A stretch of 64,000 bases of DNA. Origin: Candidatus Omnitrophota bacterium (GTDB lineage: Bacteria; Omnitrophota; Gorgyraeia; Velamenicoccales; Velamenicoccaceae). This document shows, in pieces, positions 2,992 through 39,358 of the stretch. Made by a program: the position numbers and the translations under genes. The stretch is taken from the NCBI GenBank assembly GCA_003451585.1, contig DMEU01000011.1, positions 29,493-93,492 on the forward strand. Direction: 5' to 3'. Each line of letters starts with the position of its first letter. Positions within the stretch are counted from its first letter, which is position 1. The notes under the pieces are model-generated. The model worked only from the letters and a program-made list of their open reading frames with translations. It was not told the origin of the DNA and ran no database searches.

Positions 2992-2993
2992 TT

Positions 2994-6690: not shown

Positions 6691-6699
6691 GAAGGGACC

Positions 6700-25220: not shown

Positions 25221-26837
25221 ATGTTGTCTAATCTTTTTAAAAAAGATCTTGCAGGCATATATTTCAGCTCTAAGGGCATAGTCCTGGTCCAGCAGTCTTC
25301 CGGGAAGATGAAAAATCATTTAAGCCTTCCTTATCCTGTCGCGGGAGAGGAGGCCGTAAATGTCATTTCCGACGATATTTTCGATGTCTTCAAGAACAGG
25401 GACATGGAGATGCTGGCTTTCCTGCAGAAGGCCATACGTGACAGCAGGATCGATACCTCAAATATAGTCGTGGCGCTGCCCCCGAAGGACCTTATCATAC
25501 GTTTTTTTGAAATGCCGAACATCCCGCGTTCTGAGGTATTGGCCGGTATAAATTTTGAGATGAAGAAATATATACCGTTCAAGCTCGAAGAGCTCGCCTA
25601 TGATTTTCAATACCGCATCAAACATAAGGCAAATATCATAGAAGTCGTACTTTGCGGGATAAAGCAAGACCCGTTGGACAGATACGTCAACCTTTTCAAA
25701 CAGTTGAATCTGGAACCTGTAGCCTTTGAGCCTGGCCTGTTCAGCCTTTTCAGGCTTTTATCTATAAAAAGCAAACTGGCAAGCCAGCAGTCTTATGTGA
25801 TCCTGGAGTTTGACCAGAAAGAGGCCAACATATTGATCGTAGAGAAAGGGTTCCCTTACTTTACCCGCGATATCAAGCTGTTGTCTTCGGCCGGTGCGAT
25901 CAAATCGCAGGATGAATTCGACGCTGTCCTGTTCAGGTTGATCAATGAAGTGCGAGTCTCTTTGGATTATTATAAGAGACAGTTCATGAAGAAGGATATT
26001 GACGAGATGCTGATCATCTCGAGCAAAAGCTTCAGCACCTGGGTCGATAATTTCAGCAAGGAATTAGGCCTGAAGGTCAATTTTATAGCTTTAGATGAAT
26101 TGTTGAAGATGAAGGATGTGCATGAGGACATGCTCTCCGATGCCGGCAAGGCTTTTGGTGCCGCTTTAAAGATCGAGCGGCCTTCTCTTGTAACTTTGAA
26201 TCTTTGGAAGGCTAAAGAGAAGGCAAAGGAAGCCGCTGCCCTGGGTGCGCCAGGCATGGCCGGCGTAAATATTCTGGATACAGTCGTCGCGTTTTTACAG
26301 GAATCCAGATCAGCCCTGATAAAGGGCTCTATTGTAGCCGCAGTCGTTCTTGCGGCGGCCTATGGCGCCGGATTTTCAAAAGTCTTTCCCCTTGAAAAGG
26401 AGCTCTCAGCGGCCTCTATAAAACAGCTCCCATTTTTACCCGGCGTTGACCTCTCCAGCCTCGAGAATGTGCAGGGAAGCGAACGGAATTTTATCGAGAA
26501 GGAAAGGGATTATAGGAGTTTCATACAAGATTACAGCCCCCTGTATAAGAAGTTAGAGCTTTTACCGCGCCTTCTGCCTAGAGGTGTGTGGATAGAGCGA
26601 TTGGCATTTACGGATAGGCCGCTTTCTCTGCGGCTTAGCTGTTATTCTTATTCTGCGGATGACCGAGAAATGTCCGAAAACATCAATAATTTTGTCGTGC
26701 AGTTGAAGCAAAATAAGGAATTATCGGATGCTTTTCCAATGATCGACCAGAAGTCGTATCGCGAGACGAGCAGGGACAATATCTATTATATACAATTTGA
26801 CGTTCAATTCGAAAAACCGCAAGCAGCTGGCAGGTAA
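25221..26837 (+). CDS. pilM: type IV pilus assembly PilM-PilN fusion protein
   Basis: N-terminal actin-like PilM region, a central TM helix (IVAAVVLAAAYGAGF), and a C-terminal PilN-like region (LPRGVWIERLAF...). Confidence 0.7.
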   Translation: MLSNLFKKDLAGIYFSSKGIVLVQQSSGKMKNHLSLPYPVAGEEAVNVISDDIFDVFKNRDMEMLAFLQKAIRDSRIDTSNIVVALPPKDLIIRFFEMPNIPRSEVLAGINFEMKKYIPFKLEELAYDFQYRIKHKANIIEVVLCGIKQDPLDRYVNLFKQLNLEPVAFEPGLFSLFRLLSIKSKLASQQSYVILEFDQKEANILIVEKGFPYFTRDIKLLSSAGAIKSQDEFDAVLFRLINEVRVSLDYYKRQFMKKDIDEMLIISSKSFSTWVDNFSKELGLKVNFIALDELLKMKDVHEDMLSDAGKAFGAALKIERPSLVTLNLWKAKEKAKEAAALGAPGMAGVNILDTVVAFLQESRSALIKGSIVAAVVLAAAYGAGFSKVFPLEKELSAASIKQLPFLPGVDLSSLENVQGSERNFIEKERDYRSFIQDYSPLYKKLELLPRLLPRGVWIERLAFTDRPLSLRLSCYSYSADDREMSENINNFVVQLKQNKELSDAFPMIDQKSYRETSRDNIYYIQFDVQFEKPQAAGR

Positions 26838-26851
26838 TCGGCGAAGGACAT

Positions 26852-27379
26852 ATGGGCAATAATAATCTCGATGTGATTTTGAAAAAGAAGGAGAATATCG
26901 TACTGGTGGTCATGGTCCTTATCTCACTGTGGTTTGCAAAGGGCATATACAGCGGGCAGTCCATGCGTTATGAAGAGATGCTCAGGCAGATCGAGACGGA
27001 GAAGGAGAAGGGCGTAACATTAGACCGCATCCTTGTTTTCAACGAAAAAATCAAGAAGGCAAAAGAAAAGAGCTGGGACACGTTGGATACCAATGCCATT
27101 ATCGATAAGATCTATAAAGAGGGTATCGAATCAGAGATCAAGATCAGGAATATCTCTCCCGGCGGCAGGGTTGAAGAGAAGAATTATGTCCTTATTTCGT
27201 TTGGCATCGAGTCGGAAGCGACGTATAAGCAGTTTATAAGGTTTATAAAGAGATTGGAGATTTATCCAATGCTGGTGAGGGTAAAGACATTCAATATTGA
27301 GCCCATGGATGAGACTGGTAGGAGTGTAGACCCCATATTGAGGGGAAGCATTGCGTTGGATGCCGTTTATTTAAAGTAG
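26852..27379 (+). CDS. PilO-like bitopic pilus assembly protein
   Basis: N-terminal TM segment, a coiled-coil segment and a small C-terminal domain. Called mainly from its position between pilMN and pilP/Q. Confidence 0.4.
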   Translation: MGNNNLDVILKKKENIVLVVMVLISLWFAKGIYSGQSMRYEEMLRQIETEKEKGVTLDRILVFNEKIKKAKEKSWDTLDTNAIIDKIYKEGIESEIKIRNISPGGRVEEKNYVLISFGIESEATYKQFIRFIKRLEIYPMLVRVKTFNIEPMDETGRSVDPILRGSIALDAVYLK

Positions 27380-27383
27380 GCGT

Positions 27384-27887
27384 ATGCTAAATTTCGCAAA
27401 TATTCTAAAAAAAATAATTTTTTTGTGTTTTCTTATTTTTATAACTAGCTTGGCTGTGGCTGAAGATGCCAGCGTAACGCTTCCAGGAGACGGTAAGGCC
27501 GTTGCAGAAGCACCTGTTACGGAGGCTCGGGAGGAGGCACAGGATGAAGACAGAATGGATTTCAGGGATCCTTTTAAGACTTGGCTGCCTTCAAAAAAAG
27601 ACAGGGATGTTGTTATTGACAGGTTTGAAGATGGATATGGCGAACCTGCCGGAGATCAAGGCGGAGAAGAATTTGATTATTCCGGCCTGGATGTTACCGG
27701 TATAGTTTGGGGGGAGGCAATGCCAAAAGCTATAATCAATGATGAGGTGTACGGCATAGGAGACCAGGTGAACGAGGCCACCATAATGAATATTAATAAA
27801 GACGGGATCCTGCTAAAATTCAAAGATAAGGAGTATCTGATGAAGAGAGGAAAAGAGAATATTTCAGAAAAAGGAGGGGGAATATGA
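27384..27887 (+). CDS. PilP/GspC-like periplasmic protein
   Basis: Signal peptide and an acidic linker. The C-terminal GIVWGEAMPKAIINDEVYGIGDQVNEATIMNINKDGILL resembles the PilP/GspC HR domain. Confidence 0.45.
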   Translation: MLNFANILKKIIFLCFLIFITSLAVAEDASVTLPGDGKAVAEAPVTEAREEAQDEDRMDFRDPFKTWLPSKKDRDVVIDRFEDGYGEPAGDQGGEEFDYSGLDVTGIVWGEAMPKAIINDEVYGIGDQVNEATIMNINKDGILLKFKDKEYLMKRGKENISEKGGGI

Positions 27888-29398
27888 AGCTTGTTCCTTT
27901 TCGTCTAAAAAGAGGTGTTTTTCCTGTTGCTGGTTTTTTAGCGGCCTATCTTCTTTTCATATCCGTGATATCGGCTTATGATTTTGGTATTAGCGCCGAT
28001 GACCTGATATCAAAAGAGGCATACAGGAAGATCTCCATGGATTTTAAGGATGCCAGCCTGAAAAATGTTCTAAAGATCTTCTCCGAACAGGCCGGATTGA
28101 ATTTTATCGCATCCCAGACTGTCCTGGACAGGACCCTGACATTGTATCTTGACGGCGTTCCTTTGCAGGAGGCCCTGAAAAAGATCATGTCGGCGAATAA
28201 CCTTAAATACGAATTGGAGGCGGGGGGCAGAGTTTTTATCGTTAAAGAATCCGGAAGGCCGGATGTCGACCTTGTTACTAAGATCTACCGCTTGAAATAT
28301 GCACGTTTAAAGTCATCCAGGCTGGAATCCGCCATCGCAAGCGGCGCAGGCGAGGGCGGGGCGGCAGGAGGTGGGGCCGACCAGTCGGGAGGGAATATCG
28401 AAGACGCCGTCAAGGGCGTTATGAGCAGCGCAAGCGGCGCAAATTTTGCCCAGGATGCCCGGACGAACAGCCTTATTATCACAGATGTACCGGAAAGTTT
28501 CGAGGTAATAGAAAAGGTTATCTCCCTGCTCGATCTTCCTGCTCCTCAAGTAATGATAGAGGTTGAAATACTGGATGTCTCAAAAAAGAGCATTGATGAT
28601 ATGGGCGTTACTTTTGCCAGCGATGGGTCTTTGATGTCTTTGGCCGGTTCTTCGGCTGATACCAGGTTCCCTAATTTTTTTGCCGATGGCAAGACCCTTG
28701 ATCCCCCGACTTTTACATACGGAACACTCAGTGCGGCTGTTTTTCAGGCTACACTGAATTTATTAAGGACTGACACAAAGACCAGGTTTTTGGCAAGGCC
28801 GAGGATCCTGACCATGAGCAATGAAACGGCTGATATTAAGATAGAGACAGACGAGGCCATAGGCAAAACAAAAGAGACAAGCGGAGAAGGCTCGGCCTCC
28901 AGCTCTACAGAGAAGGCGGAACGCGCCCCTACGGGGGTCAGCTTGAAGGTGACTCCCCAGGTAGATCTTTCTGGCGGGAACGTCACTATGTTCATTGTGC
29001 CATCTGTTTCTCAAGCCAAGTTTTCTACCATAACTGTTAACGGCGAGGCTGTGAAGGATGTTGAAAAACGCTCTTCCCAGACGACTTTGATGGTGAAAAA
29101 CGGCGAAACCATCGTGGTTGGCGGGCTTATAAGGACGAATGACGAAACTACGGTCAACAAGATACCTGTTCTTGGAGACATTCCGATAATCGGGGCCTTG
29201 TTTAGGCATAAAGATAAGACTGTAGAAGAGAGAGAATTGATAGTCTTTATAACCCCCCATATAATAGGGGGCAATGATGCCGTTGCCTTGGCAAGGGCTG
29301 ACATACCTTCAATGCCTCTGGCCCCTTTTCGCGAGCAGTCATCGCTTATCGCCAGGAAGGAACAGATTGACAATATGTTGGAACGATGGGAAAATTAA
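27884..29398 (+). CDS. pilQ: secretin (PilQ/GspD family)
   Basis: N0/N1-like domain (LKNVLKIFSEQAGLNFI) and a C-terminal secretin domain (KIPVLGDIPIIGALFR...ELIVFITPHI). Confidence 0.88.
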   Translation: MKLVPFRLKRGVFPVAGFLAAYLLFISVISAYDFGISADDLISKEAYRKISMDFKDASLKNVLKIFSEQAGLNFIASQTVLDRTLTLYLDGVPLQEALKKIMSANNLKYELEAGGRVFIVKESGRPDVDLVTKIYRLKYARLKSSRLESAIASGAGEGGAAGGGADQSGGNIEDAVKGVMSSASGANFAQDARTNSLIITDVPESFEVIEKVISLLDLPAPQVMIEVEILDVSKKSIDDMGVTFASDGSLMSLAGSSADTRFPNFFADGKTLDPPTFTYGTLSAAVFQATLNLLRTDTKTRFLARPRILTMSNETADIKIETDEAIGKTKETSGEGSASSSTEKAERAPTGVSLKVTPQVDLSGGNVTMFIVPSVSQAKFSTITVNGEAVKDVEKRSSQTTLMVKNGETIVVGGLIRTNDETTVNKIPVLGDIPIIGALFRHKDKTVEERELIVFITPHIIGGNDAVALARADIPSMPLAPFREQSSLIARKEQIDNMLERWEN

Positions 29399-29432
29399 CG
29401 GCAAACAAGAACTTTAATGTCTTGAGTATATT

Positions 29433-31145
29433 ATGGCGCGCCCATATTTAAAATTAGGCGAGATATTGATCAAAGAAGGCATCATCAGCCAGGCCCAGCT
29501 GGACGATGTAATAAAAGTCCAGGCTAAAGAGGGCGGCCGTCTTGGCGAGATACTTCTTAAAATGGGTGTTGCCACCGAAGAAGACCTTGTCGTAGCGCTT
29601 GGGAAACAGCTCAACCTGCCGTATGTATCGATGGGCGCCGGATTGATCAAGCCGGCCACCGACCAGAACTTAGACCACGTAGTCTCCAAAGAATTCGCCA
29701 TAAAAAATCTTGTCCTTCCTTTGTCAAAGACCATGAACTCTTTGACATGCGCGATTACTGACCCCCTCGATGTAATTCTTATCGATAACTTAAGGAAGAT
29801 GACCAATTGTGAGATAAATCCTGTAATTGCCACTAAGACCGAGATACTTAAGGCCATAGATGAGTTTTACGGAAAGAGGGATATTCTAAAAGCCGCGGTA
29901 AAAGAATCCTATCAAACCACGGATGAATTCGGTCCTGCACTGGAAATAGAGGCGGAAGAATTAAGTATCGACCGCTTGATCGCGCGCGCGGAAGAAGCAC
30001 CTGTAGTAAAGCTGGTAGATCTGGTAATAAAACAGGCCATAGACGAGAGGGCTTCAGATATTCATATTGAACCGTTTAAGGACAAGATCGGCCTTCGGTA
30101 TAGAATAGACGGCGCCCTCCATGAGATACCTCCTCCGGCAAAACACCTGCACCTGCCTATAATATCGAGAATAAAGATCCTATCCAAGATGGATATAGCC
30201 GAAAAGCGCCTGCCTCAAGACGGCGGTTTTACCGTGCGCATTGAAGGCCGGAATATAGATCTGCGTGTTTCAGTCATGCCTACGATCTACGGGGAAAAGA
30301 TCGTTATGAGGATCTTGGATAAAAGCGGCGTAGGCCTGGACCTGGCGCAAATGGGTTTCCTGCCGCAGCAATTGGAGTTGTTCCGCAAGGCCATCCGCAT
30401 GCCTTACGGCCTTATTTTTCTTACAGGGCCTACGGGAAGCGGTAAGTCCACGAGCCTTTACGCCGCTTTAGCCGAGATCAAGAGCCCGACAAAAAATATC
30501 GTTACCGTTGAAGATCCCGTGGAGTATCACATGGAAGGTATAAATCAGGTCCAGATAAAGCCGGAAATAGGCCTGACATTTGCTTCGGCCTTAAGGGCAT
30601 TCTTAAGACAGGACCCGGATATAATGATGGTCGGAGAGGTTAGAGATCTGGAAACTGCGCAGATCTGCGTGCGTTCGGCCTTGACCGGGCATTTGGTCTT
30701 AAGTACTTTGCATACGAATGACGCGTCGTCGGCTGTCACGCGTTTGATAGATATCGGGGTAGAGGCGTATCTCTTGATGCCGTCTTTAGTCTTGATAGTC
30801 GCGCAGCGCCTGGTGCGTAAGTTGTGCTCCGAATGCAAAGAGGCATACGAGCCTATGCAGGAAGAGAGGGACAGGTTTGACCTTGGACAGGATCTTATTT
30901 ACCGCGCCAAGGGATGCGACAAATGCAATCATATAGGTTATCGGGGAAGGGCCTGTATAGGCGAGGTCTTGTTTGTCGACGATGAAATAAGGCAGTATAT
31001 AGTCCCAGGCATAAACGCTCCGAAATTGAAGAAGGTCGCCGTTGAGCGTGGCATGATGACACTTTATGAAAGTGGATTGAAAAAGGTCAGGGATGGCACA
31101 ACATCTTTGGAAGAGGCATTGAGCGCGACCATCGGAGTTGAATAA
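29433..31145 (+). CDS. pilB: type IV pilus/T2SS assembly ATPase (GspE/PilB family) with N-terminal MshEN domain
   Basis: Walker A GPTGSGKST, Asp/His boxes and a tetracysteine motif (CSEC...CDKC). The N-terminus carries tandem RLGxxLL..G..Q motifs. Confidence 0.92.
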   Translation: MARPYLKLGEILIKEGIISQAQLDDVIKVQAKEGGRLGEILLKMGVATEEDLVVALGKQLNLPYVSMGAGLIKPATDQNLDHVVSKEFAIKNLVLPLSKTMNSLTCAITDPLDVILIDNLRKMTNCEINPVIATKTEILKAIDEFYGKRDILKAAVKESYQTTDEFGPALEIEAEELSIDRLIARAEEAPVVKLVDLVIKQAIDERASDIHIEPFKDKIGLRYRIDGALHEIPPPAKHLHLPIISRIKILSKMDIAEKRLPQDGGFTVRIEGRNIDLRVSVMPTIYGEKIVMRILDKSGVGLDLAQMGFLPQQLELFRKAIRMPYGLIFLTGPTGSGKSTSLYAALAEIKSPTKNIVTVEDPVEYHMEGINQVQIKPEIGLTFASALRAFLRQDPDIMMVGEVRDLETAQICVRSALTGHLVLSTLHTNDASSAVTRLIDIGVEAYLLMPSLVLIVAQRLVRKLCSECKEAYEPMQEERDRFDLGQDLIYRAKGCDKCNHIGYRGRACIGEVLFVDDEIRQYIVPGINAPKLKKVAVERGMMTLYESGLKKVRDGTTSLEEALSATIGVE

Positions 31146-32389
31146 TGCCGAAATATTCGTATATCGGACGTAAGTTGAGCGGTGAAAAGGAGACCGGTAT
31201 CATAGAAGGGCCCGGACAGGACGATGTCGTAGCCCAGCTTCAGAAGAAGGGGCTTATCGTTACATCGATCATCCCTTTCGATCTGGGCAAAAAAGAGATG
31301 ATGCCGGCAAAAGAAGGAAAGGCAGCAAAGAGCCAGTTCACCCACAATGGTATAAATGCAGGCGACCTGGTCCTTTTCGCGCGCCAGCTTTCGATGCTTT
31401 TGGGGTCAGGCATAAGCTTGTTGAGGTCTCTTGACGTCATATCAAAACAGGTTGATAGTAAAAAACTCTTCAATATTATCGCCCAGGTGCGGTTGGATAT
31501 GGAAGGCGGCAGGACGCTGCGTGATTCGATAGCAAAATTCCCGGAGGTCTTTTCGCCCTTATGGGTAAATCTCATAGAGACCGGTGAGGCGAGCGGTAAC
31601 CTCCCCATGGTCTTAGATAAGCTCGCGTATTATCTTGAAGAAGCGGAAAATTTCAAACGAAAGATCATCTCGGCGATGATGTATCCGGGTATATTGTGTT
31701 TTATCTCGGTATCGGCAGTCCTCTTTTTCATAATGAAGATCATCCCTACATTTTCGAAAATACTGGATTCTTTCGGCGTTGAATTACCGATGGCTACGAA
31801 GATATTGATAATGTTGAGCGAGGCGTTGACAAAAAGGTTCCTGTGGATCGTAGCAGGGGTTGCCGGCTTGGTCTTTGCGTACAAAAAAATGAGCAAGGTG
31901 TCGAAATTCAACAGGATCATCGAAGACGCGCGTTTTAAAATACCTATCGCCGGCGAATTTTTCAGGTATATGCTGATTGAACGTTTTGCCACCACGATGT
32001 CCATATTGATCGAAAGCGGCGTGCCTATCCTTTATGCGTTAGAGATCTCTGAGCGCAGCGCGGGCTCCATGAAGATGTCTGAGACCATACAGTTCATCAA
32101 AAGGAGCGTCAAGGAAGGGCGCAGTATGGCCGCGCCCATGGAAAAAAGCGATATATTCACCCCTATGGTGGTGCAGATGGTGGCAATAGGCGAAGAGATC
32201 GGTGAATTGTCTAATATGTTAAAAAGGATCGCGAAGTTCTATCAGGAGTATCTGGAGACCTTTGTATCGCGCCTTGCCTCTATTTTCGAACCTTTGATGA
32301 TAGTCTTTATGGGTATTATTATAGGAGGGATGGTCATAGCTATATTTTTGCCGATATTTAATATGGCGGCCATGAAGACATCCGGTTAG
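31145..32389 (+). CDS. pilC: type IV pilus/T2SS platform protein (PilC/GspF family)
   Basis: Two GspF repeats, three TM segments and ~410 aa. ATG overlaps the pilB stop. Confidence 0.9.
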   Translation: MPKYSYIGRKLSGEKETGIIEGPGQDDVVAQLQKKGLIVTSIIPFDLGKKEMMPAKEGKAAKSQFTHNGINAGDLVLFARQLSMLLGSGISLLRSLDVISKQVDSKKLFNIIAQVRLDMEGGRTLRDSIAKFPEVFSPLWVNLIETGEASGNLPMVLDKLAYYLEEAENFKRKIISAMMYPGILCFISVSAVLFFIMKIIPTFSKILDSFGVELPMATKILIMLSEALTKRFLWIVAGVAGLVFAYKKMSKVSKFNRIIEDARFKIPIAGEFFRYMLIERFATTMSILIESGVPILYALEISERSAGSMKMSETIQFIKRSVKEGRSMAAPMEKSDIFTPMVVQMVAIGEEIGELSNMLKRIAKFYQEYLETFVSRLASIFEPLMIVFMGIIIGGMVIAIFLPIFNMAAMKTSG

Positions 32390-32517: not shown

Positions 32518-32922
32518 ATGAGAAATAAGAAAGGTTTCACGCTGCTTGAACTTATTATCGTGGTAATCGTAATAGGTATCTTAGCTTCCATCGCTCTGCC
32601 TAGGTATTTGAAGATCGCGGAAAAAGGCAGGGTCGCGGAAGGTAAGTCCCTTTTGGGCGCCATCAGGAGCGCGCAGATGAGGTATTCCGCAGAAAAAGGC
32701 GCGTTCGCAACTACTACAGGTGACTTGGATTTGAACATGCAGACGGCAAGGTATTTTACCATGTCAGTTCCTAGCTCTGGCGGTTCAGTATCTGTTGAGA
32801 CGACCGTTGTTGCAACAGCCACAAGAAACACCGTTGATAACCCTTCGCCGGGATGTATATATAATATCACCCAGGCAGGTGTTATGTCGAACAACACAGC
32901 CGCTTGCGGAGGCTTTTTATAA
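32518..32922 (+). CDS. type IV pilin (probable major pilin), prepilin-type N-terminal methylation domain
   Basis: MRNKKG|FTLLELIIVVIVIGILASIALPRY class III signal with Glu+5, two C-terminal Cys, and its own promoter and terminator. Confidence 0.88.
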   Translation: MRNKKGFTLLELIIVVIVIGILASIALPRYLKIAEKGRVAEGKSLLGAIRSAQMRYSAEKGAFATTTGDLDLNMQTARYFTMSVPSSGGSVSVETTVVATATRNTVDNPSPGCIYNITQAGVMSNNTAACGGFL

Positions 32923-32941: not shown

Positions 32942-32997
32942 TGCCCTGGCAAGCGCCTTTTGAATACATTCAGGTTTTTGCCAGGGCATTTTGGTTT
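32942..32997 (+). terminator. intrinsic terminator after the major pilin gene
   Basis: tgccctggcaa (32942-32952) pairs with ttgccagggca (32978-32988), followed by ttttggttt. Confidence 0.65.
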
Positions 32998-33009
32998 GTG
33001 TAGAATCTT

Positions 33010-34005
33010 ATGATAAGGTTAGCATGCGTCTTGACGACTGAATGCAATTTGAGGTGCTTGCATTGTTTAAGGGACAATGCAGCAGCGAGTCATTTGCCGC
33101 TTGAGATCGTAAGCAAGGCTGTGGCAGGGGCAAAAAAATTTGATCTAGAGTATGTTCATTTGACCGGCGGAGAGCCTTTTCTGTATCATCATTTGCCGGA
33201 ACTTTTTGAATTACTCAAACAGAGTAATGTCCAGGCGACTTTTTCATCTAATGGCCTGCTCTTTGAAAAAAGATCCGAACTGATAACTAAATATAAAAAA
33301 GTCATCAGATTCATTAATATAAGCCTTGACGGTCCTTGTGCGGATATCCATGATGCCACCAGAGGAAAAGGGGCTTTTGGCGCGCTCATGGAGTCTTTTA
33401 AATTTTCAAGAGCGCATAAACTCCCTTTTGGCGTTACCTGTTGTTTAAACAGGTTCAATCTCAGCCACGCGCCGGACATCGTCAAATTCGCCAGGCGGCA
33501 AGGCGCTAAACACATTAATTTTTCTACCGTCCTGCCCTGCAGGAATGCCGAAGAGAACGGCCTTGTCTTAGATGAGGCCCAGAGGAAAAAGGCGTATGGT
33601 GAATTGCGACGTCTAGCCTATGTCTCTTCCATGGATTTTTTCAGGTTATTTTATGTGCCTGTCTTTATAAGCGAGCCCGTGTACGCTTCAAGCAATATAG
33701 TCATGTGCGCCAATCAGTCGTTGCGTACGGTGACTGTCGATGTGGATGGAAGCCTGCACTTTTGTTGTTTTCTTACTGTTTATGACGTGGACAAGGAAGT
33801 TGAAAAAGGGTTGAAGGTAGCAAATCTTTGCGATGTTGATTTTGAAGAAGGGCTTAAATGTTTCGCGGATATGATACATAGTTTTATCCGCGGGCGGATG
33901 GATGATTATCAAGGCGGTTCTTTTGATAAACAGGGTATGGATTTTAACAGCTGTTTTTATTGCAATAAAAAATTGGGCATAGCCTTAAAGGTAGGGCCGT
34001 TATGA
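33010..34005 (+). CDS. radical SAM enzyme with SPASM/twitch-like C-terminal Cys-rich domain
   Basis: C12-x3-C16-x2-C19 (CNLRCLHC), GGEP motif, C-terminal C-x13-G-x4-C (CANQ...DGSLHFC) and a CxxC (CFYC). The stop overlaps the start of the next pilin (ATGA). Confidence 0.85.
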   Translation: MIRLACVLTTECNLRCLHCLRDNAAASHLPLEIVSKAVAGAKKFDLEYVHLTGGEPFLYHHLPELFELLKQSNVQATFSSNGLLFEKRSELITKYKKVIRFINISLDGPCADIHDATRGKGAFGALMESFKFSRAHKLPFGVTCCLNRFNLSHAPDIVKFARRQGAKHINFSTVLPCRNAEENGLVLDEAQRKKAYGELRRLAYVSSMDFFRLFYVPVFISEPVYASSNIVMCANQSLRTVTVDVDGSLHFCCFLTVYDVDKEVEKGLKVANLCDVDFEEGLKCFADMIHSFIRGRMDDYQGGSFDKQGMDFNSCFYCNKKLGIALKVGPL

Positions 34006-34400
34006 ACAAAAAGGGTTTTTCTCTGATCGAGGTCATAGTGGTCGTGATCATCATTGGCATCCTGGCAAGGATAAGCATACCTCGTTATATCCGCCTGGTC
34101 GAGAAAGGCAGGTCAGCGGAGGCGCGTAATATTTTAGGGCATATACGTTCGGCACAAATGGCTTATCAGCTTGAGAATGGTTATTATACCAATACCCTTG
34201 GTAATTTACAGGTTGCGGCACCTACGGCTTGTAACGCGACTTTTTATTTTAGTTACGCGTTGGCGAACGGCAGCGGGACTTTTACGGCTACAGCAAACAG
34301 GTGTACTGGGGGTGCAGGGAAATCACCCACTGGTTCGGCAGCATTCAGCTTATCTATTAACCAGGGCGGGACGCTAAGCGGTACGGCCGGTTATCTGTGA
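34002..34400 (+). CDS. type IV pilin paralog
   Basis: MNKKG|FSLIEVIVVVIIIGILARISIPRY. It is a paralog of the pilin at 32518 through the alpha-1 helix and has two Cys (C-x23-C). Confidence 0.88.
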   Translation: MNKKGFSLIEVIVVVIIIGILARISIPRYIRLVEKGRSAEARNILGHIRSAQMAYQLENGYYTNTLGNLQVAAPTACNATFYFSYALANGSGTFTATANRCTGGAGKSPTGSAAFSLSINQGGTLSGTAGYL

Positions 34401-34406
34401 GGTTTC

Positions 34407-34817
34407 ATGAAGAAACTAATTCGCGCGATAGATGATCTTTCGGGTTTTACCCTGATCGAATTGGTTGTGGTGGTCATTATTATGAGCATCCTTGTCGCGT
34501 TAGCCGTACCGACTTATACCAATACCAAGGAGAAGGCGTTGGATAAAGAGGCTGTAATGGCGTTAAAGCTTATACGGTCTGCCAGTAAACAGTACTTTGC
34601 GAAATTTGAGCATTTTTATCCATATACCGGCTCAATCACTTCTTTGTCTAATATAAATAACAACCTTAGCCTGGATCTGAGCGGCTCGAATTGGGGGTTT
34701 GCTCTTAGCGGCACAGGAACGGCCTTTACGGCGAACGCAACCAGGACAGGCAGTACAAGAAGGTGGACAATAAATCAGGCCGCGTCGGAGCCGTCGTGTG
34801 TTACAGCCTGTCTGTGA
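34407..34817 (+). CDS. type IV pilin-like protein
   Basis: ...DDLSG|FTLIELVVVVIIMSILVALAVPTY, with a C-terminal CVTAC. Confidence 0.85.
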   Translation: MKKLIRAIDDLSGFTLIELVVVVIIMSILVALAVPTYTNTKEKALDKEAVMALKLIRSASKQYFAKFEHFYPYTGSITSLSNINNNLSLDLSGSNWGFALSGTGTAFTANATRTGSTRRWTINQAASEPSCVTACL

Positions 34818-34831
34818 TCTCTAAAGATGAT

Positions 34832-35206
34832 ATGAGAACCAGAGGTTTTACTTTGGTTGAGGTAATGGTGGCCGCGATCATCCTGGCCCTTTTGGCAGCC
34901 GGGCTCTTTAGTGTTTTCGCTTCTGCCAGGAACCTGGTTTCCCGTTCTAAAAGAAGGCTTGTGGCAACTGAGATAGCTAAAGCCGAGATCGAGAAAAACA
35001 AGCAGCATATCAGGGCGGACAGATGGGATAATGTTTCATATCCTGCTGTTTATCCGGCTAATGGAGTCTGGCGTTCCTGCGCCTCGGCCGCGTATACATA
35101 CCAGGGCATTACTTATAATGTTGATTGCCGCGTAGACCCCGGTCCGACAGCCGATTCTTACAGAAAAGTAACTGTTCGCGTGAGGTGGAATGAACCTACG
35201 ATCTAG
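34832..35206 (+). CDS. minor pilin/pseudopilin (PilV/GspI-like)
   Basis: MRTRG|FTLVEVMVAAIILALLAAG. The in-frame ATG at 34832 gives a canonical prepilin leader; the ORF start at 34763 overlaps the previous gene. Confidence 0.8.
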   Translation: MRTRGFTLVEVMVAAIILALLAAGLFSVFASARNLVSRSKRRLVATEIAKAEIEKNKQHIRADRWDNVSYPAVYPANGVWRSCASAAYTYQGITYNVDCRVDPGPTADSYRKVTVRVRWNEPTI

Positions 35207-35723
35207 CAATGATGGTGTTACTTTAATAGAACTTATCCTTGCGATGGTCTTAGTCGGTGCCATCATCATGACCGGCCTGTCTATGGAGCTTGGCCTCAGG
35301 CGTATTTATTCATCGACTGATTTTGAAGTGCATTTGTTGGATGAGGCAGCTCCGATAATGGCGATGGTGACCAAGGATATAAACAGGGGCGTCGGAGCGG
35401 TAGCAACGGCTCAATCCCCGTTTAGCGGGACTTATAGGATATATTATGATTCCAATTTTAACGGTATGCGGGATGCGGCAGATACTGCTGTTGAGTATCA
35501 GTATAATAGCGCCACATATAATCTTAATTACAGGCGCACTTTGAGCGGGCCGTGGCAGCTTTTATCGGATAAGGTCACCAGTTTTAGCATAGCTGCTCCG
35601 GTCAACGGCGTTTCCACATTTTCTATCAGCCTTAAAAGATCCCCGTCTTTAGGCACAGGTTATACTAATCCGCAGATAGCCGTAACTTCAAGCGCGCAGT
35701 ACAGGGGATATTCTATAAATTGA
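35190..35723 (+). CDS. minor pilin/pseudopilin (PilW/GspJ-like)
   Basis: ...SNDG|VTLIELILAMVLVGAIIMTG prepilin-type N-terminus. Confidence 0.75.
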   Translation: MNLRSSNDGVTLIELILAMVLVGAIIMTGLSMELGLRRIYSSTDFEVHLLDEAAPIMAMVTKDINRGVGAVATAQSPFSGTYRIYYDSNFNGMRDAADTAVEYQYNSATYNLNYRRTLSGPWQLLSDKVTSFSIAAPVNGVSTFSISLKRSPSLGTGYTNPQIAVTSSAQYRGYSIN

Positions 35724-35855
35724 TGGGGGATGATGCGCGAAGCGCAAAAATCATCCCCAAGGGGTGATAGCGAAGACTTTGCGACGAATAGGAGTAAAGT
35801 CGCAGCGCAAGAGGGGCGTAAGCCCCTATTGATCAGGGGTTTGGGGATGATTTTC

Positions 35856-35928
35856 GGGGCAGTAGCTCAGCTGGGAGAGCATCACGTTCGCAACGTGGGG
35901 GTCGTGGGTTCGAATCCCATCTGCTCCA
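35856..35928 (+). tRNA. tRNA-Ala (anticodon CGC)
   Basis: Hand-folded cloverleaf: acceptor GGGGCAG/CTGCTCC with a G3:U70 pair, D arm GCTC/GAGC, anticodon loop TTCGCAA, T arm GTGGG-TTCGAAT-CCCAT. No CCA is encoded. Confidence 0.9.
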
Positions 35929-36041
35929 CTGATTTTTTTAAGAAGACAAGCTGGGATTCGAAGCCGACCCGAGCGCCACTGGTTCAAGCGAGGGCGGCCG
36001 GCCACGAAGGAGCCCCGACGGATGTCGGGGCGGGTGAGTGG

Positions 36042-36059
36042 GAATCCCATCTGCTCCAC
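36042..36059 (+). repeat. 18-bp direct repeat of the tRNA-Ala 3' end (35912-35929)
   Basis: gaatcccatctgctccac is identical at both sites. Here it is followed by 'cacc', and the intervening 112 bp are visibly GC-rich. Confidence 0.85.
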
Positions 36060-36091
36060 CACCTTAATATAGTAGAATAGCGCAGCGGTAA

Positions 36092-37183
36092 ATGAAAAAA
36101 TACGGGTTGTTTTTTACTTTTATCTTTGCGGCCGCCTGTTTTATTTTCCTGCCTGTGGTCTTTTCCGGCGATGTGTTGCATGAAGCAAGTTTTTACTTCA
36201 AGCTCGATAATAAACAGGTAAATTGCGTGCTTTGTCCCCGCAGGTGTGTTATCCCTGACGGAAGGCGCGGTTTTTGCGGGGTCAGAGAGAATAGGGGAGG
36301 CACGCTCTATTCTCTGGTCTATTCCAAGCCATGCGCGGTCCACATCGACCCTATAGAGAAGAAACCTCTTTTTCATGTCTTGCCCGGTTCGACCGCTTTT
36401 TCTCTTGCGACAGTAGGTTGTAATCTAAGGTGCAAGTTCTGTCAGAATTGGCAGATCTCGCAGGCCTCTCCGGAAGATGTGGTACCTCTTGACCTTTCTC
36501 CGGAGGAGGTGATCAGACATATCAAGGAAAGCGGCTCGCCGGTGATAGCATATACATATACCGAACCTACCGTATATTACGAATACATGTTCGATATTGC
36601 AAGGCTTGCGCGCGCAGCCGGTATAAAGAATGTCATGCATTCAGCAGGTTTCATAAACGAGGAGCCTCTGCGTCGGCTTTGCCCTTACCTGGACGCGGCC
36701 AATATTGACTTAAAGGGTTTTAATAACAGGTTCTATTCTGAGATGACGCTTGGAAATGTCGACGATGTGCTGCGCACGCTTGTGGTCTTAAAAGATGAGG
36801 GTGTCTGGACCGAGATAACCAACCTTATCCTGCCCGGGCTAAACGATGACGCGCAGGAGATAAGGAGGATGTGTTTATGGATACGCGACAATCTCGGGCC
36901 GGATACGCCGGTCCATTTCACTCGCTTTACCCCGCACTATAAACTTATGAACCTTTCCCCCACTCCGGTCCAGACGCTTATTATGGCTAGAAGAATAGCG
37001 CGGGAGGCCGGCTTAAAATACGTGTATCTTGGCAATATTTCCCACACCGATGCCGAGGACACTTTTTGCCCGAAATGCGGAAAGCCGGTCATAGAGAGGG
37101 CAGGCTATGTCATAACGGCAAATAATGTCGTAGAAGGCAAGTGTAAGTTCTGCGGAGAGAAGATAAATGGCATCTGGAAATAA
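36092..37183 (+). CDS. AmmeMemoRadiSam system radical SAM enzyme
   Basis: CNLRCKFCQNWQISQ cluster motif of the PFL-activase-like AmmeMemoRadiSam subfamily. Adjacent to Memo/AMMECR1. Hydrophobic N-terminal segment. Confidence 0.85.
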   Translation: MKKYGLFFTFIFAAACFIFLPVVFSGDVLHEASFYFKLDNKQVNCVLCPRRCVIPDGRRGFCGVRENRGGTLYSLVYSKPCAVHIDPIEKKPLFHVLPGSTAFSLATVGCNLRCKFCQNWQISQASPEDVVPLDLSPEEVIRHIKESGSPVIAYTYTEPTVYYEYMFDIARLARAAGIKNVMHSAGFINEEPLRRLCPYLDAANIDLKGFNNRFYSEMTLGNVDDVLRTLVVLKDEGVWTEITNLILPGLNDDAQEIRRMCLWIRDNLGPDTPVHFTRFTPHYKLMNLSPTPVQTLIMARRIAREAGLKYVYLGNISHTDAEDTFCPKCGKPVIERAGYVITANNVVEGKCKFCGEKINGIWK

Positions 37184-38687
37184 GTGTAAAGTTAAAAGTG
37201 TAAAGTTTAAAGTAAATTTTAATATTATAAAGTACCTGATCTTATTATTTGTCTTTACACTTTACACTTTACACTTTACGCCATTTTGTGCTACTGAAAA
37301 TGTAAGAGTAAAGGAGCCTAATGTTGCCGGGACTTTTTACCCGGATGATAAGGCCGAGTTATCCGCATTGATCCGGAAATATGTCCGTCAGGCGAAAGGC
37401 GCGCCCGTTGGCGGCAAGCCGGTGGTCCTTATCGCACCTCATGCAGGATATATATATTCCGGCCCCGTTGCCGCTTATGGATACGCGACCATCGAAGGCA
37501 TGTCGTTTGATACGGTTATCATACTTGCTGCATCCCATTATTTTTCATTTAAAGGTGCCTCTGTCTATAAGGAAGGGTCTTTCCGCACTCCCTTAGGTGA
37601 TCTTGCGATCGATACTGCCCTTGCTTCTGAGCTGTTGTCCTTAGATTCTGAACTTTTAATTTTTAAACCAAACTATTTTGAACAGGAGCACTCCCTGGAA
37701 GTGGAGCTGCCTTTTTTGCAGGAGGTTTTAAAGCCCGGTTTTAAGATCCTGCCCGTATTGTTCGGCGATCTGTCGTATGAGGGTTGCCTTGCACTGGCGA
37801 AATATCTGGCCGGAGTAACCGAAGGAAGAGATGTCCTTGTTGTGGCCAGCACAGACCTGTCTCACTACAGGCCTTATGGAGAAGCGTTAGTCTACGATAA
37901 AAAAACCATCGATCATATCAAAAACTTCGACACAAGGGGATTGTGGGATGCCGTGGCAGGGACGGGATGGAATGTATGCGGCATAAAACCCGTTGTAACA
38001 GGCATTGAATTCGCAAAAATTAAAAACGCAAAAAGCCTTAATGTATTGAAATATGCCAATTCCGGAGATACAGCAGGAGGAAAAGACCGGGTCGTGGGTT
38101 ATACAAGTATCCTTATCAGTAAGGAGGAAGGAATGTTCAAAAGAGAAGAAAAAAGGCGCTTGCTTGAGATCGCAAGGCGCACGATAGAGACCCAAGTGAG
38201 AGAGGGTAAGGCCCCGGCCCTTGAGGGAGAGTGCCCTGCCTTGAGCGCGCGTTGCGGCAGTTTTGTAACCCTGCGCAAGAAGGGCGAACTCAGGGGCTGC
38301 ATCGGCAGATTCACCTCGGATGAGCCGTTATATAGTGTCGTTTCACAGATGAGCATAGAATCCTGCACCCATGATTACAGGTTTTCTCCTGTGACCGCCG
38401 ATGAGCTTGACGATATCACGATCGAGATCTCGGTCTTGACCGAGCCTGAGCTTATAGAGGATTGGCACAGGATCAGGTTGGGGGTTGACGGAGTGATCAT
38501 ACGAAAGGGCTATTCCAGCGGTGTTTTCCTACCGCAGGTAGCGGTTGAAACAGGGTGGGACCTGGAGATGTTCTTGGGCCAGTTATGCTTTCAGAAGGCA
38601 GGATTACCCAGTGATTGTTTTAAGGACCCTGAAACGAAAATCTACACCTTCCAGGCCGAAATTTTTTCAGAAGACGGCCTAAAATAA
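37167..38687 (+). CDS. fused AmmeMemoRadiSam protein B (Memo) + protein A (AMMECR1)
   Basis: Memo half: VAGTFYP, APHAGYIYSG, DLSH. AMMECR1 half: LRGCIGRF. The only in-frame start is the ATG at 37167, overlapping the radical SAM gene. Confidence 0.85.
   Translation: MASGNKCKVKSVKFKVNFNIIKYLILLFVFTLYTLHFTPFCATENVRVKEPNVAGTFYPDDKAELSALIRKYVRQAKGAPVGGKPVVLIAPHAGYIYSGPVAAYGYATIEGMSFDTVIILAASHYFSFKGASVYKEGSFRTPLGDLAIDTALASELLSLDSELLIFKPNYFEQEHSLEVELPFLQEVLKPGFKILPVLFGDLSYEGCLALAKYLAGVTEGRDVLVVASTDLSHYRPYGEALVYDKKTIDHIKNFDTRGLWDAVAGTGWNVCGIKPVVTGIEFAKIKNAKSLNVLKYANSGDTAGGKDRVVGYTSILISKEEGMFKREEKRRLLEIARRTIETQVREGKAPALEGECPALSARCGSFVTLRKKGELRGCIGRFTSDEPLYSVVSQMSIESCTHDYRFSPVTADELDDITIEISVLTEPELIEDWHRIRLGVDGVIIRKGYSSGVFLPQVAVETGWDLEMFLGQLCFQKAGLPSDCFKDPETKIYTFQAEIFSEDGLK
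37182..37279. repeat. 7-nt-unit hairpin (gtgtaaa/gttaaaa/gtgtaaa/gtttaaa ... ctttaca x4) inside the 5' end of the Memo-AMMECR1 ORF
   Basis: The right arm is a perfect (ctttaca)4 tandem array. The left arm is complementary in units of gtgtaaag. Confidence 0.8.
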
Positions 38688-38698
38688 AATTTGATATT

Positions 38699-39358
38699 AT
38701 GCTAAGAGTAACCGCCAGCCTGTTTTTTACCGGTTTAGTATTGGGGTACGGGCCTTGCCTTTTAAGCTGCGGCCCGCTTCTTGTCTCGTATATAACCGCT
38801 ACAAAAAAAAGCGGGATTTCCGGCCTTAAGGTATATCTTATTTTTTCAGCTACGCGCCTGTTCGTTTATCTTGTCTTCGGTATACTTGTAGGGCTATTCG
38901 GTGAGAGGCTGCTACATCGTCTTTTTGAAAGTTCCGCTCTTGCTCTTCTTTTTCTTCTTTTCGGCGGATTTCTAGCTGTACTTGGGGCGCTTATTATGAG
39001 CGGGAAAAGCGATATAGAGAACAAGTGCAGCAGTTTTATCCATCGATATGTTGAGCCGGAGGGCATAAAAAATGTTATAATTTTTGGGTTAGTGGTTTCT
39101 TTGTCACCTTGTCTGCCTCTTATGGGTGTATTGGGCTTTATTGCCTTGCTTTCAGATACATGGGCAAAGGGGGCAATGTATATGTCCGCATTCGCATTCG
39201 GCACTATTGTAAGCCCATTGATAATTTTATCCGTTACTGCCGGATGGGCTGCGCGACATTTGAGCAGGCACAGTAATATCATGCGGATAGTCAGGCTTAT
39301 TTGCGGCTTTATGATATGCCTTTTAGGTATTAACCTTATTTGGAGCGGCTTGAGATGA
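38699..39358 (+). CDS. DsbD_2/TauE-like polytopic membrane protein
   Basis: Six TM segments, with GPCLLSCGP and SPCLP Cys motifs in TM1 and TM4 as in CcdA/DsbD-type transporters. Confidence 0.5.
   Translation: MLRVTASLFFTGLVLGYGPCLLSCGPLLVSYITATKKSGISGLKVYLIFSATRLFVYLVFGILVGLFGERLLHRLFESSALALLFLLFGGFLAVLGALIMSGKSDIENKCSSFIHRYVEPEGIKNVIIFGLVVSLSPCLPLMGVLGFIALLSDTWAKGAMYMSAFAFGTIVSPLIILSVTAGWAARHLSRHSNIMRIVRLICGFMICLLGINLIWSGLR

Follow-up and report, generated by a model that had tools for sequence, protein, structure and literature searches.

The window (the whole 64,000-nt stretch of Omnitrophota DNA that was analyzed) encodes a 331-aa radical SAM protein (rSAM; 33010..34005, + strand) inside a type IVa pilin gene array, and a probability of about 0.4 is assigned to the reading that it is an accessory pilin-modifying enzyme that acts before export. 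In Velamenicoccus-like loci, rSAM, where present, always lies between the major and minor pilin genes. We infer that a pilin is the substrate, and the chemistry and site of modification are proposed below in the same sense. A literature search turned up no paper that connects radical SAM chemistry with pilins, in agreement with the first-pass annotation, which was aware of no such modification; the pilin modifications known to us (N-methylation, glycosylation, phospho-forms, and disulfides) all take place either at the membrane or in the periplasm. Ca. Velamenicoccus archaeovorus expresses type IVa pili, which almost all Velamenicoccia encode and which are thought to attach these ultra-small predators to their prey (PMC10066038).

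Pilus Gene Locus

All features described here are on the + strand. The pilus assembly block (25221..32389) comprises a PilM/N fusion (25221-26837; Pfam PilM_2), PilO (26852-27379; Pfam PilO), a gene without assigned function (27384-27887), the secretin PilQ (27884-29398; Pfam Secretin), the ATPase PilB (29433-31145; Pfam T2SSE+MshEN), and the platform protein PilC (31145-32389; Pfam T2SSF), in an order that is repeated in orthologous loci. It is followed by pil1 (32518..32922), which encodes the major type IVa pilin (134 aa; N_methyl, 6e-9; Pilin_GH); the AF2 model of this protein (pLDDT 86) has a pilin fold, in which a helix (residues 9-60) is joined to a sheet of four strands, and is matched best by PilE, PAK, and FimA in Foldseek. 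Downstream of rSAM lie pil2 (34002..34400), a pil1 paralog of 132 aa with N_methyl, Pilin_GH, and ComP_DUS matches and a conserved Cys pair (C-x23-C); pil3 (34407..34817), a minor pilin of 136 aa with an N_methyl match and a C-terminal CxxxC, which is kept in the orthologous loci; pil4 (34832..35206), a minor pilin with an ATG start and an alternative upstream GTG at 34763; and pil5 (35190..35723), a pilin-like protein of 177 aa with a weak N_methyl match (8e-4), which is present in all loci and is the last of the array. By the marks of a type IV pilin, namely a prepilin leader with the G-F-T-L-x-E N-methylation motif (N_methyl scores above cutoff) and a pilin fold (modeled for pil1), pil1 to pil4 are type IV pilins. 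The ORFs flanking rSAM are prepilins (N_methyl E-values 6e-9 to 5e-5), which bears out the placement of rSAM between the major pilin gene and its paralog in the first-pass annotation. A DsbD/CcdA-like membrane protein is also encoded near the rSAM locus.

A strong hairpin followed by a U-run, read as a terminator or attenuator, lies 3' of pil1 (32942..32999; MFE -35.2 kcal/mol, z = -5.75); none of 200 shuffled sequences matches its folding energy. It was missed by a simple terminator scan because its loop is longer than 8 nt. GC-rich hairpins with a U-run occur 3' of pil1 in the 11 loci that have an intergenic spacer there, including L011, which lacks rSAM; in L013, a second pil1 copy directly follows pil1 in place of the hairpin spacer. 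In its clade, the rSAM gene is the first after the pil1 terminator and would head the transcription unit of the minor pilins. At the rSAM-pil2 junction of this window, no terminator-like site was found, and we infer that rSAM is cotranscribed with the minor pilins. A promoter-like site at 32978-33006 was rejected as the rSAM promoter, as the ATG follows the end of its -10 box by 4 nt. The TGA of rSAM overlaps the ATG of pil2 (ATGA, 34002..34005), as had been reported; the translational coupling proposed from it has the overlap in the window in its favor, but the overlap is not conserved: in orthologous loci, ~1-90 nt separate the two genes when pil2 starts are taken as called or from motifs.

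Radical SAM Core

The core of rSAM (residues 8-161) carries a CxxxCxxC motif (C12, C16, and C19; 33043..33066), which provides the ligands of the SAM-binding [4Fe-4S] cluster, and a GGEP SAM-binding motif (G53-P56; 33166..33177); the cysteine motif and T52-G53-G54-E55-P56 are invariant in 31 homologs. Pfam Radical_SAM (PF04055) scores 64.6 bits against a gathering threshold of 29.5. In the AF2 model (pLDDT 91.5), beta and alpha elements alternate across residues 2-173, and Foldseek matches the model to radical SAM structures with a probability of 1.0. On the basis of CxxxCxxC, profile score, GGE-type motif, and partial TIM-barrel core, rSAM belongs to the radical SAM superfamily, as had been recognized from the motifs alone. 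The first beta-strand of the model begins at residue 2, with no N-terminal extension, and the absence of an RRE-like extension noted previously is thereby upheld. Neither an RRE fused at the N-terminus nor an adjacent PqqD-like protein was found, the neighbors being pilins. The Pfam score, the ~32 orthologous 90% clusters, a dN/dS of 0.11 between two close orthologs (indicative of selection), and detection of the protein (see below) identify rSAM as a real gene rather than a chance ORF.

No curated family claims rSAM, whose top-scoring NCBIfam models reach ~60-68 bits, with cutoffs of 265-650. This applies also to the anaerobic sulfatase maturase (TIGR03942; 45.6 bits against a cutoff of 349.45), which had been named as an example of a family with an unrelated substrate to which rSAM might be assigned; no sulfatase was seen in the rSAM neighborhood. 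The wider family, counted at E <= 1e-30 in clusters of 50% identity, has at least 352 representatives, with varied contexts where these are known. None of 102 family representatives is near the score cutoff of a curated family (best E-values ~1e-30). One distant member (P0036) adjoins a PqqD-like protein (21.2 bits against a cutoff of 23.4), which fits a peptide-modifying ancestry. The gene of another distant relative (P0041) is at a contig end, where its context is uninformative. Chemistry based on Foldseek was rejected: the matches of the rSAM model (viperin, anSME, DesII, SkfB, SuiB, BlsE, and MoaA) are generic for radical SAM proteins and therefore cannot assign it.

C-Terminal Domain

The C-terminal domain (residues ~226-322) is twitch-like. 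C233-x13-G247-x4-C252-C253 (33706..33768) represents the first half of the SPASM/twitch motif around a beta-hairpin, and C315-x2-C318 (33952..33963) would provide the remaining two auxiliary-cluster ligands. Among the 102 representatives, C252, C315, and C318 never vary and C233 is kept in at least 90%, giving four conserved C-terminal cysteines. In the AF2 model, hairpin strands (240-243 and 248-250) and a long helix (278-302) precede C315 and C318. A full SPASM domain has a 7-Cys motif (CX9-15GX4C-gap-CX2CX5CX3C-gap-C) and two auxiliary clusters. The CX2CX5CX3C half is absent from the rSAM sequence; Pfam SPASM (PF13186) remains sub-threshold (16.1 against 21.5 bits, over profile positions 1-41 of 67 only), and a whole-protein Pfam scan gave no SPASM match. 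By definition, a twitch domain has CX9-15GX4C on either side of a beta-hairpin, after which come helix alpha2' and additional Cys ligands (PMC6231123), and rSAM agrees with this in its sequence motif, predicted hairpin and helix, and four cysteines (102 representatives). Four conserved C-terminal cysteines suffice for one auxiliary cluster, and rSAM is thus predicted, from model and conservation, to be of twitch type rather than full 7-Cys SPASM, with a single, fully Cys-ligated auxiliary cluster. The C-x13-G-x4-C signature and the CxxC are present as noted earlier, but the label "SPASM-type" is accurate only for the former, the first half of the motif; the other half is missing, and one auxiliary cluster, not two, is expected; placement in the SPASM/twitch subgroup without an RRE is supported. 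The C-terminal domain alone gave no meaningful match to PDB sequences.

Conserved Position and Phylogeny

The order PilC, pil1, rSAM, and pil2 to pil5 is present in 11 of 11 loci (10 read from DNA and one from a gene table only), across which rSAM identity falls to 45%. In five more assemblies, including the complete genome of Ca. Velamenicoccus archaeovorus (QAT17165/QAT17166), the rSAM and pilin accessions are adjacent, and 16 more rSAM/pil1 pairs are consistent with linkage, with contigs of equal size as the proxy. The rSAM clade ("clade 1") is made up of ~32 clusters, all from Velamenicoccus-like Omnitrophota, and is monophyletic in a neighbor-joining tree (not bootstrapped). Among ~30 contexts, no clade-1 rSAM was found outside a pilin array, and ~75 unrelated type IV pilus loci contain no rSAM homolog. 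Linkage to pilins, the lack of which the first-pass annotation would have taken as one refutation of its proposal, is conserved in every related genome examined. A metagenome scan with the PilC protein (overly specific back-translated patterns) yielded matches of at most 41% identity and no added clade members.

An outgroup Omnitrophota locus (L015; PilC 49% identical) has PilC followed by a pil2-like pilin. Because pil1 and rSAM are both absent from L015, the sole outgroup locus read, they look like one derived module, and pil1 is the best substrate candidate. L011, which is nested in the clade (bootstrap 93), has no rSAM and keeps pil1 to pil5 as well as the assembly genes; rSAM is therefore dispensable for keeping the operon. 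Approximately 20 kb around rSAM is collinear in these genomes, including unrelated genes (AmmeMemoRadiSam, RsmE, and MiaB), and conserved order is consequently weak evidence when taken alone, since it may have been inherited rather than selected.

These observations also frame the best-surviving alternative, which we regard as possible but on the unlikely side: that rSAM is a passenger, with a protein or metabolite substrate unrelated to the pilus, and owes its array position to inherited synteny in one narrow lineage. Collinearity of the whole region makes the linkage non-discriminating, and the clean loss of rSAM in L011 with retention of the pilus genes fits this explanation, as does the breadth of the family and its varied contexts. 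So does a sister clade in Omnitrophota (P0033-P0035 and P0393-P0440; ~55 clusters; 30-39% identity over the full length), which keeps C177, C233, C252, C253, C315, C318, and R296; unlike rSAM, its members have an N-terminal extension of ~30 aa and, in 2/2 loci, are flanked by the genes of a peptidoglycan-binding lipoprotein on one side and of a membrane protein of 164-171 aa on the other, away from pilins. Against a passenger, the ~30 clade-1 contexts are all alike, rSAM has its place within the array, past the pil1 terminator and closely abutting pil2, pil1 and rSAM are jointly missing from L015, and a loop of pil1 is altered in the lineage that lost rSAM: every rSAM-linked pil1 has [DE]-x-P there (D107-N108-P109 in the window), whereas ERS or EKS takes its place in the sister lineage without rSAM. 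Even if the link to pilins fails, rSAM marks out a twitch-type family that has neither a name nor a curated model and comprises at least 352 clusters.

Proposed Role in Pilin Modification

As a pilin-modifying enzyme, rSAM would be cytoplasmic, with the SAM-cleaving [4Fe-4S] cluster held by C12/C16/C19 and one auxiliary cluster held by C233, C252, C315, and C318, and would act on a pilin prior to export, as anSME does on sulfatases. The 5'-deoxyadenosyl radical would abstract a hydrogen atom from a pilin residue, and the auxiliary cluster could then accept an electron, resulting in net oxidation or an intramolecular non-Cys crosslink; epimerization of the pilin would be an alternative outcome. 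Oxidation of the radical intermediate is the role thought to be played by the fully ligated auxiliary clusters of BtrN and anSME (PMC6231123). It counts against the pilin role that no substrate-binding domain is recognizable in rSAM. So does the co-translational insertion that type IV prepilins generally undergo by way of SRP/Sec, since an enzyme in the cytoplasm would then have little chance to reach the globular domain.

The beta-hairpin loop of pil1 (R-x3-[DE]-x-P-x3-4-Y) is a weak lead, drawn from sequence comparison, to a candidate modification site. The loop motif was associated with rSAM presence (14/27 vs. 0/9; Fisher p = 0.005, not phylogeny-corrected and based on proxy pairing of cluster representatives), and several pil1 homologs with the [DE]NP loop are on long contigs without a matching rSAM. 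It is a more doubtful proposition that clade 1 represents the first known post-translational radical SAM modification of a type IV pilin, which would be anaerobe-specific, cytoplasmic, and pre-export, and would affect the abundant major pilin of predatory Velamenicoccus-like Omnitrophota, for example by a non-Cys crosslink, dehydrogenation, or epimerization in the [DE]-x-P...Y beta-hairpin loop. If true, radical SAM modification would be a new chemical class of pilin maturation, radical SAM protein maturases would extend past RiPPs and sulfatases, and filament stability or prey adhesion could be altered.

There is a genomic parallel in Pseudomonas aeruginosa, in which accessory genes such as tfpO/pilO and tfpW come right after the major pilin gene and modify or assist the pilin while being dispensable for assembly. 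Their products are membrane glycosyltransferases or small accessory proteins that function on the periplasmic side; rSAM follows the same genomic logic, with a cytoplasmic radical SAM enzyme instead.

Comparison with Characterized Radical SAM Enzymes

BtrN, the butirosin 2-deoxy-scyllo-inosamine dehydrogenase and archetypal twitch enzyme, likewise consists of a core and a short C-terminal domain without an RRE, and both BtrN and rSAM (the latter according to model and conservation) have four cysteines arranged with one before the hairpin, one after it, and two past helix alpha2' (PMC6231123). Unlike rSAM, which is in a pilin operon, BtrN acts on an aminocyclitol and belongs to an antibiotic gene cluster, and no specific sequence relationship between the two was detected. 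This four-ligand topology (PMC6231123), together with Foldseek matches to the sugar-modifying DesII and BlsE and a conserved N-[IML]-[TS] sequon-like motif in pil1 and pil2, would suit an enzyme for small molecules with BtrN-, DesII-, or BlsE-like sugar chemistry, the moiety being joined to the pilin later. We consider this improbable, as the Foldseek matches reflect the radical SAM core in general, and neither the operon nor the orthologous contexts contain glycosyltransferase, oligosaccharyltransferase, or sugar-nucleotide genes.

anSME/AtsB also lack an RRE, and anSME acts in the cytoplasm on a secreted protein, ahead of its export, as proposed here for rSAM; it has the highest query-normalized TM-score against the rSAM model among solved structures (0.69-0.71), but differs in having the full 7-Cys SPASM domain, in which there are two auxiliary clusters. 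The sporulation killing factor sactisynthase SkfB resembles rSAM as a twitch enzyme with one auxiliary cluster, and modifies a peptide; it differs in its N-terminal RRE and CxC ligand pair, and the match covers only the rSAM core (3-189). Chemistry at substrate cysteines, as in SkfB, is unsupported for rSAM.

Pilin Cysteines

The first-pass annotation had envisaged an oxygen-independent thioether or similar crosslink through paired cysteines in the pilin D-region, a reading now highly improbable. It could draw on SkfB, a twitch-type thioether synthase to which rSAM is closest in sequence among solved structures (6e-22, core only), on the presence of two cysteines each in pil1, pil2, and pil3 of the window, and on the description of the host organisms as anaerobes. 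The C-x23-C and C-x3-C pairs are present in pil2 and pil3 as described; that of pil1 is C-x16-C (C113 and C130) rather than C-x17-C, and is not conserved in orthologs. Among rSAM-linked pil1 orthologs read from DNA, those of L003, L008, and L014 have no cysteine and that of L001 has one, and more pil1 homologs that are paired with an rSAM contig are also Cys-free. The pairs of pil2 and pil3 are equally conserved in L011 and L015, where there is no rSAM. The nearby DsbD/CcdA-like protein additionally implies that periplasmic thiol-redox components exist. The pilin maturase as first conceived thus retains its radical SAM type and conserved pilin linkage, and loses the paired-Cys target, the second auxiliary cluster, and coupling by a conserved overlap.

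Cofactor Families and Expression in Ca. Velamenicoccus archaeovorus

The ortholog QAT17165.1 is annotated as "radical SAM domain heme biosynthesis protein," and rSAM has NCBIfam matches to AhbD, NirJ, and MoaA (E ~1e-15 to 1e-17), yet a cofactor biosynthesis enzyme of heme or molybdopterin type is scarcely credible, because these matches are confined to the shared core, their scores of 56-63 bits are far under the family cutoffs of 231-650 (AhbD, 63.2 vs. 500; NirJ, 58.1 vs. 515; NirJ1, 61.7 vs. 650; MoaA (GTP 3',8-cyclase), 63.5 vs. 325 for the archaeal model and 54.9 vs. 284), the 102 family representatives likewise stay far from every curated cutoff, and there are no heme or molybdopterin genes near rSAM. 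These sub-cutoff scores effectively refute assignment to the heme or MoaA families.

Both genes are expressed in Ca. V. archaeovorus, with transcripts at 434 TPM for pil1 and 19 TPM for rSAM (PMC12583861 Table S1). The rSAM protein is present in three of three metaproteomes at 18-55 ppm, and pil1 has riBAQ values of 1875-7393 ppm, ~100-fold above rSAM (PMC12583861 Table S1). The rSAM ortholog and its pilin are detected in the deposited LiM metaproteomes of this organism (PRIDE PXD025008), whose minor pilins have the accessions QAT17161-17164. The C-terminal tryptic peptide of the pil1 ortholog (QAT17166.1) is LTTPVAENPNMGAYTLNISMGGLLSGSTTGLTVL.

The radical SAM gene and its annotation

The radical SAM gene set among the pilin genes (rSAM; 33010-34005, + strand, 331 aa) encodes a genuine radical SAM enzyme of the twitch type that is expressed and whose most likely role, held tentatively at a probability of about 0.4, is that of an accessory enzyme modifying pilins before export. 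A literature search found no paper tying radical SAM enzymes to pilins. The flanking prepilin ORFs, all with N_methyl matches, are the major type IVa pilin gene pil1 (32518-32922) and the minor or pilin-like genes pil2 (a pil1 paralog; 34002-34400), pil3 (34407-34817), pil4 (34832-35206), and pil5 (35190-35723); PilM/N, PilO, PilQ, PilB, and the platform protein PilC are encoded upstream of the array. The rSAM stop and pil2 start overlap (ATGA at 34002-34005). The first-pass annotation described the ORF, its motifs, this overlap, and the pilin neighbors accurately save for two details; the Cys spacing in pil1 is x16, not x17.

Pfam Radical_SAM matches the protein at 64.6 bits (cutoff 29.5), in keeping with the enzyme class first assigned. 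Approximately 32 orthologous 90% clusters (41-77% identity) were found, the cofactor residues are invariant in the alignment of homologs, and two close orthologs give a dN/dS of 0.11. Judged from sequence, the gene is real and evidently functional. The JGI call (P0001, 315 aa) uses an internal TTG start that truncates the Cys motif; alignment favors the ATG at 33010, and the NCBI call (HAJ56868.1, 331 aa) is named "hypothetical protein." The ortholog in Ca. Velamenicoccus archaeovorus (QAT17165.1) bears the name "radical SAM domain heme biosynthesis protein," a heme assignment without support from HMM scores. Locus tags in the window include DCL35_03745 and DCL35_03750.

A twitch-type enzyme of an unnamed family

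The protein carries CxxxCxxC (Cys 12, 16, and 19) and the SAM-binding motif T52-G-G-E-P56, with C233-x13-G247-x4-C252 and C315-x2-C318 in its C-terminal third. An exhaustive profile search gave a family of 352 representative clusters (E <= 1e-30); C12, C16, C19, C233, C252, C315, and C318 are invariant or near-invariant in 102 full-length representatives, so that the last four would be auxiliary ligands. In the AF2 model (pLDDT 91.5), C233 precedes a beta-hairpin (strands 240-243 and 248-250), C252 follows it, and C315/C318 follow a long helix (278-302). Conserved Cys and model together match the twitch layout reported for BtrN and SkfB (PMC6231123). Of the "SPASM-type" signature originally proposed, the first half is present and the remainder absent: Pfam SPASM was not found in a whole-protein scan, and the C-terminal domain alone reaches 16.1 bits (cutoff 21.5), covering only profile positions 1-41 of 67. 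As predicted from motifs and model, rSAM is twitch-type and lacks a 7-Cys SPASM domain; the absence of an RRE, noted earlier, was borne out.

No NCBIfam model came near its cutoff for rSAM (best 58-68 bits vs. cutoffs of 265-650; W_rSAM_matur, ScmF, MftC, archaeal MoaA, AhbD, and NirJ). Because none of the 102 representatives approaches the cutoff of any curated family, the wider family is unnamed. Structure searches with the model returned generic core matches only; the best query-normalised TM-score (0.71) was to anSME, and SkfB, the nearest solved structure by sequence, matches in the core only.

Some family proteins (P0078, P0081, P0090, P0115, P0140, P0192, P0205, and others) are 600-1900 aa long, with 2-4 tandem copies or fragments of the family, recalling a report of giant Omnitrophota proteins that contain radical SAM domains (bioRxiv 10.64898/2026.06.07.730766). 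A distant member (P0036, 27% identity; locus L009, 7032-9014) is preceded by a 41-aa ORF and a 155-aa PqqD-like protein (full-length profile match, 21.2 bits, E 4e-4); this locus may be a RiPP cluster.

Conservation and loss of the pilin linkage

Eleven loci were read, 10 from DNA (the window, L001/2, L003, L007/12, L008, L010, L014, L016, L109, and L110) and one (ERZ1426844) from its gene table only. Where the contig reaches, all 11 have the order PilM, PilO, an unknown gene, PilQ, PilB, PilC, pil1, rSAM, pil2 to pil5, with rSAM identity down to 45% and PilC at 69-77%; the synteny with pilins expected in other genomes is thus kept. Consecutive rSAM and pilin accessions occur in five further assemblies by cluster membership, one of them the complete V. 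archaeovorus genome (QAT17165.1 and QAT17166.1); 16 further rSAM/pil1 pairs are linked only by the proxy of equally long source contigs. No member of this ortholog clade was seen in any other setting, and none of approximately 75 unrelated pilus loci of type IV retrieved via PilC contained an rSAM homolog. The clade is confined to Velamenicoccus-like Omnitrophota and inseparable from their pilin array. The whole block of ~20 kb, including AmmeMemoRadiSam, a DsbD-like protein, RsmE, and MiaB, is collinear, so gene order alone is no proof of a functional link; the main rival, that rSAM is a passenger unrelated to the pilus, is only a little less likely than the pilin-modifying role.

Two related pilus loci without rSAM serve as natural controls. 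L015 (PilC 49% identical) has PilC, a pil2-like gene, pil3, pil4, and pil5; since both pil1 and rSAM are absent, this suggests that the two form one derived module. In L011 (PilC 77% identical; sister to the window and L109, bootstrap 93), pil2 directly follows pil1. This absence is, by its phylogenetic placement, a secondary loss, and rSAM is therefore dispensable for keeping the pilus operon.

A sister clade of ~55 clusters (30-39% identity to rSAM) has an N-terminal extension and keeps the same Cys. In both loci read (L004, 3675-9564; L006, 159-9525), the sister-clade gene has a conserved neighborhood: it lies between the genes for a peptidoglycan-binding lipoprotein and a small membrane protein (164-171 aa) that has the motif Y-x-I-V-x-G-x-Y-K-x-R-x-V-V-C-R-I-N, and before the lipoprotein come, in order, a coiled-coil membrane protein, a 212-227-aa secreted protein, a response regulator, and a STAS-PilZ protein.

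Transcription and expression

A terminator-like hairpin and U-run follow pil1 (32942-32999; -35 kcal/mol, z = -5.75), missed by a simple terminator scan because the loop is long. All ten other loci with an intergenic spacer there, L011 included, have an equivalent hairpin, kept in structure and not in sequence. The hairpin marks pil1 as a separately terminated major-pilin gene; rSAM would be the first gene of the minor-pilin unit; it overlaps pil2 in the window, and in orthologous loci some 1-90 nt separate the two. Expression in V. archaeovorus agrees with this division (PMC12583861 Table S1): pil1 reaches 434 TPM in RNA and riBAQ 1875-7393 ppm in three metaproteomes, and rSAM 19 TPM and 18-55 ppm, its protein being present in each of the three. 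Seymour et al. report that V. archaeovorus expresses type IVa pili and make no mention of rSAM (PMC10066038).

In L013 (5695-6377; MAG CG1_02_44_16), pil1 is tandemly duplicated; the nearly identical second copy begins ~85 nt after the first, in place of the hairpin, and runs off the contig.

Candidate target sites

The paired Cys of the pilin C-terminal regions, earlier proposed as the crosslinked target, are a most improbable site: among the rSAM-linked loci read from DNA, pil1 has no Cys in L003, L008, and L014 and one in L001, and pil2 and pil3 keep their Cys pairs also in L011 and L015, where rSAM is missing. Cys are likewise absent from pil1 of L013, where the downstream context is cut, and from other pil1 homologs that were matched to an rSAM contig.

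Few positions are conserved in the globular part of pil1: R103, P109, G121, an acidic residue at position 107, and a Tyr shortly after P109. The [DE]-x-P would lie in a loop flanked by predicted strands 97-103 and 114-118. Every rSAM-linked pil1 has [DE]-[NGM]-P, and the L011 lineage ERS or EKS. A proxy test that pairs genes by equally long contigs and ignores phylogeny associates the loop motif with rSAM presence (14/27 vs. 0/9, p = 0.005); several [DE]NP pilins are on long contigs without a matched rSAM. The loop may be an alternative candidate site, a weak lead. Separately, pil1, pil2, and their orthologs share a C-terminal strand motif, I/L-N-[IML]-[TS]-x-x-G, with an N-x-S/T sequon in most orthologs, absent from window pil2.

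Neighboring features downstream

An AmmeMemoRadiSam system (36092-38687) lies just downstream of the pilin array and also follows the array in every related locus, even those without rSAM. Its radical SAM gene, the second in this region, matches TIGR04337 (E 2e-113, 378.8 bits vs. a cutoff of 220) and is followed by a 506-aa protein fusing Memo and AMMECR1 domains. Next, a DsbD/CcdA-like transmembrane thiol-disulfide transporter (38699-39358; DsbD_2, E 2e-19), downstream in all loci, is relevant to possible handling of pilin disulfides in these anaerobes. Between array and AmmeMemoRadiSam is tRNA-Ala(CGC) (35856-35929); two ORFs that span it, 35730-36080 (+) and 35826-36062 (-), are spurious. 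In ERZ1426844 the equivalent position, from pil5 to the AmmeMemoRadiSam gene, is occupied by inserted genes for a methyltransferase and a phage-type integrase, which suggests an integration hotspot at the tRNA site.
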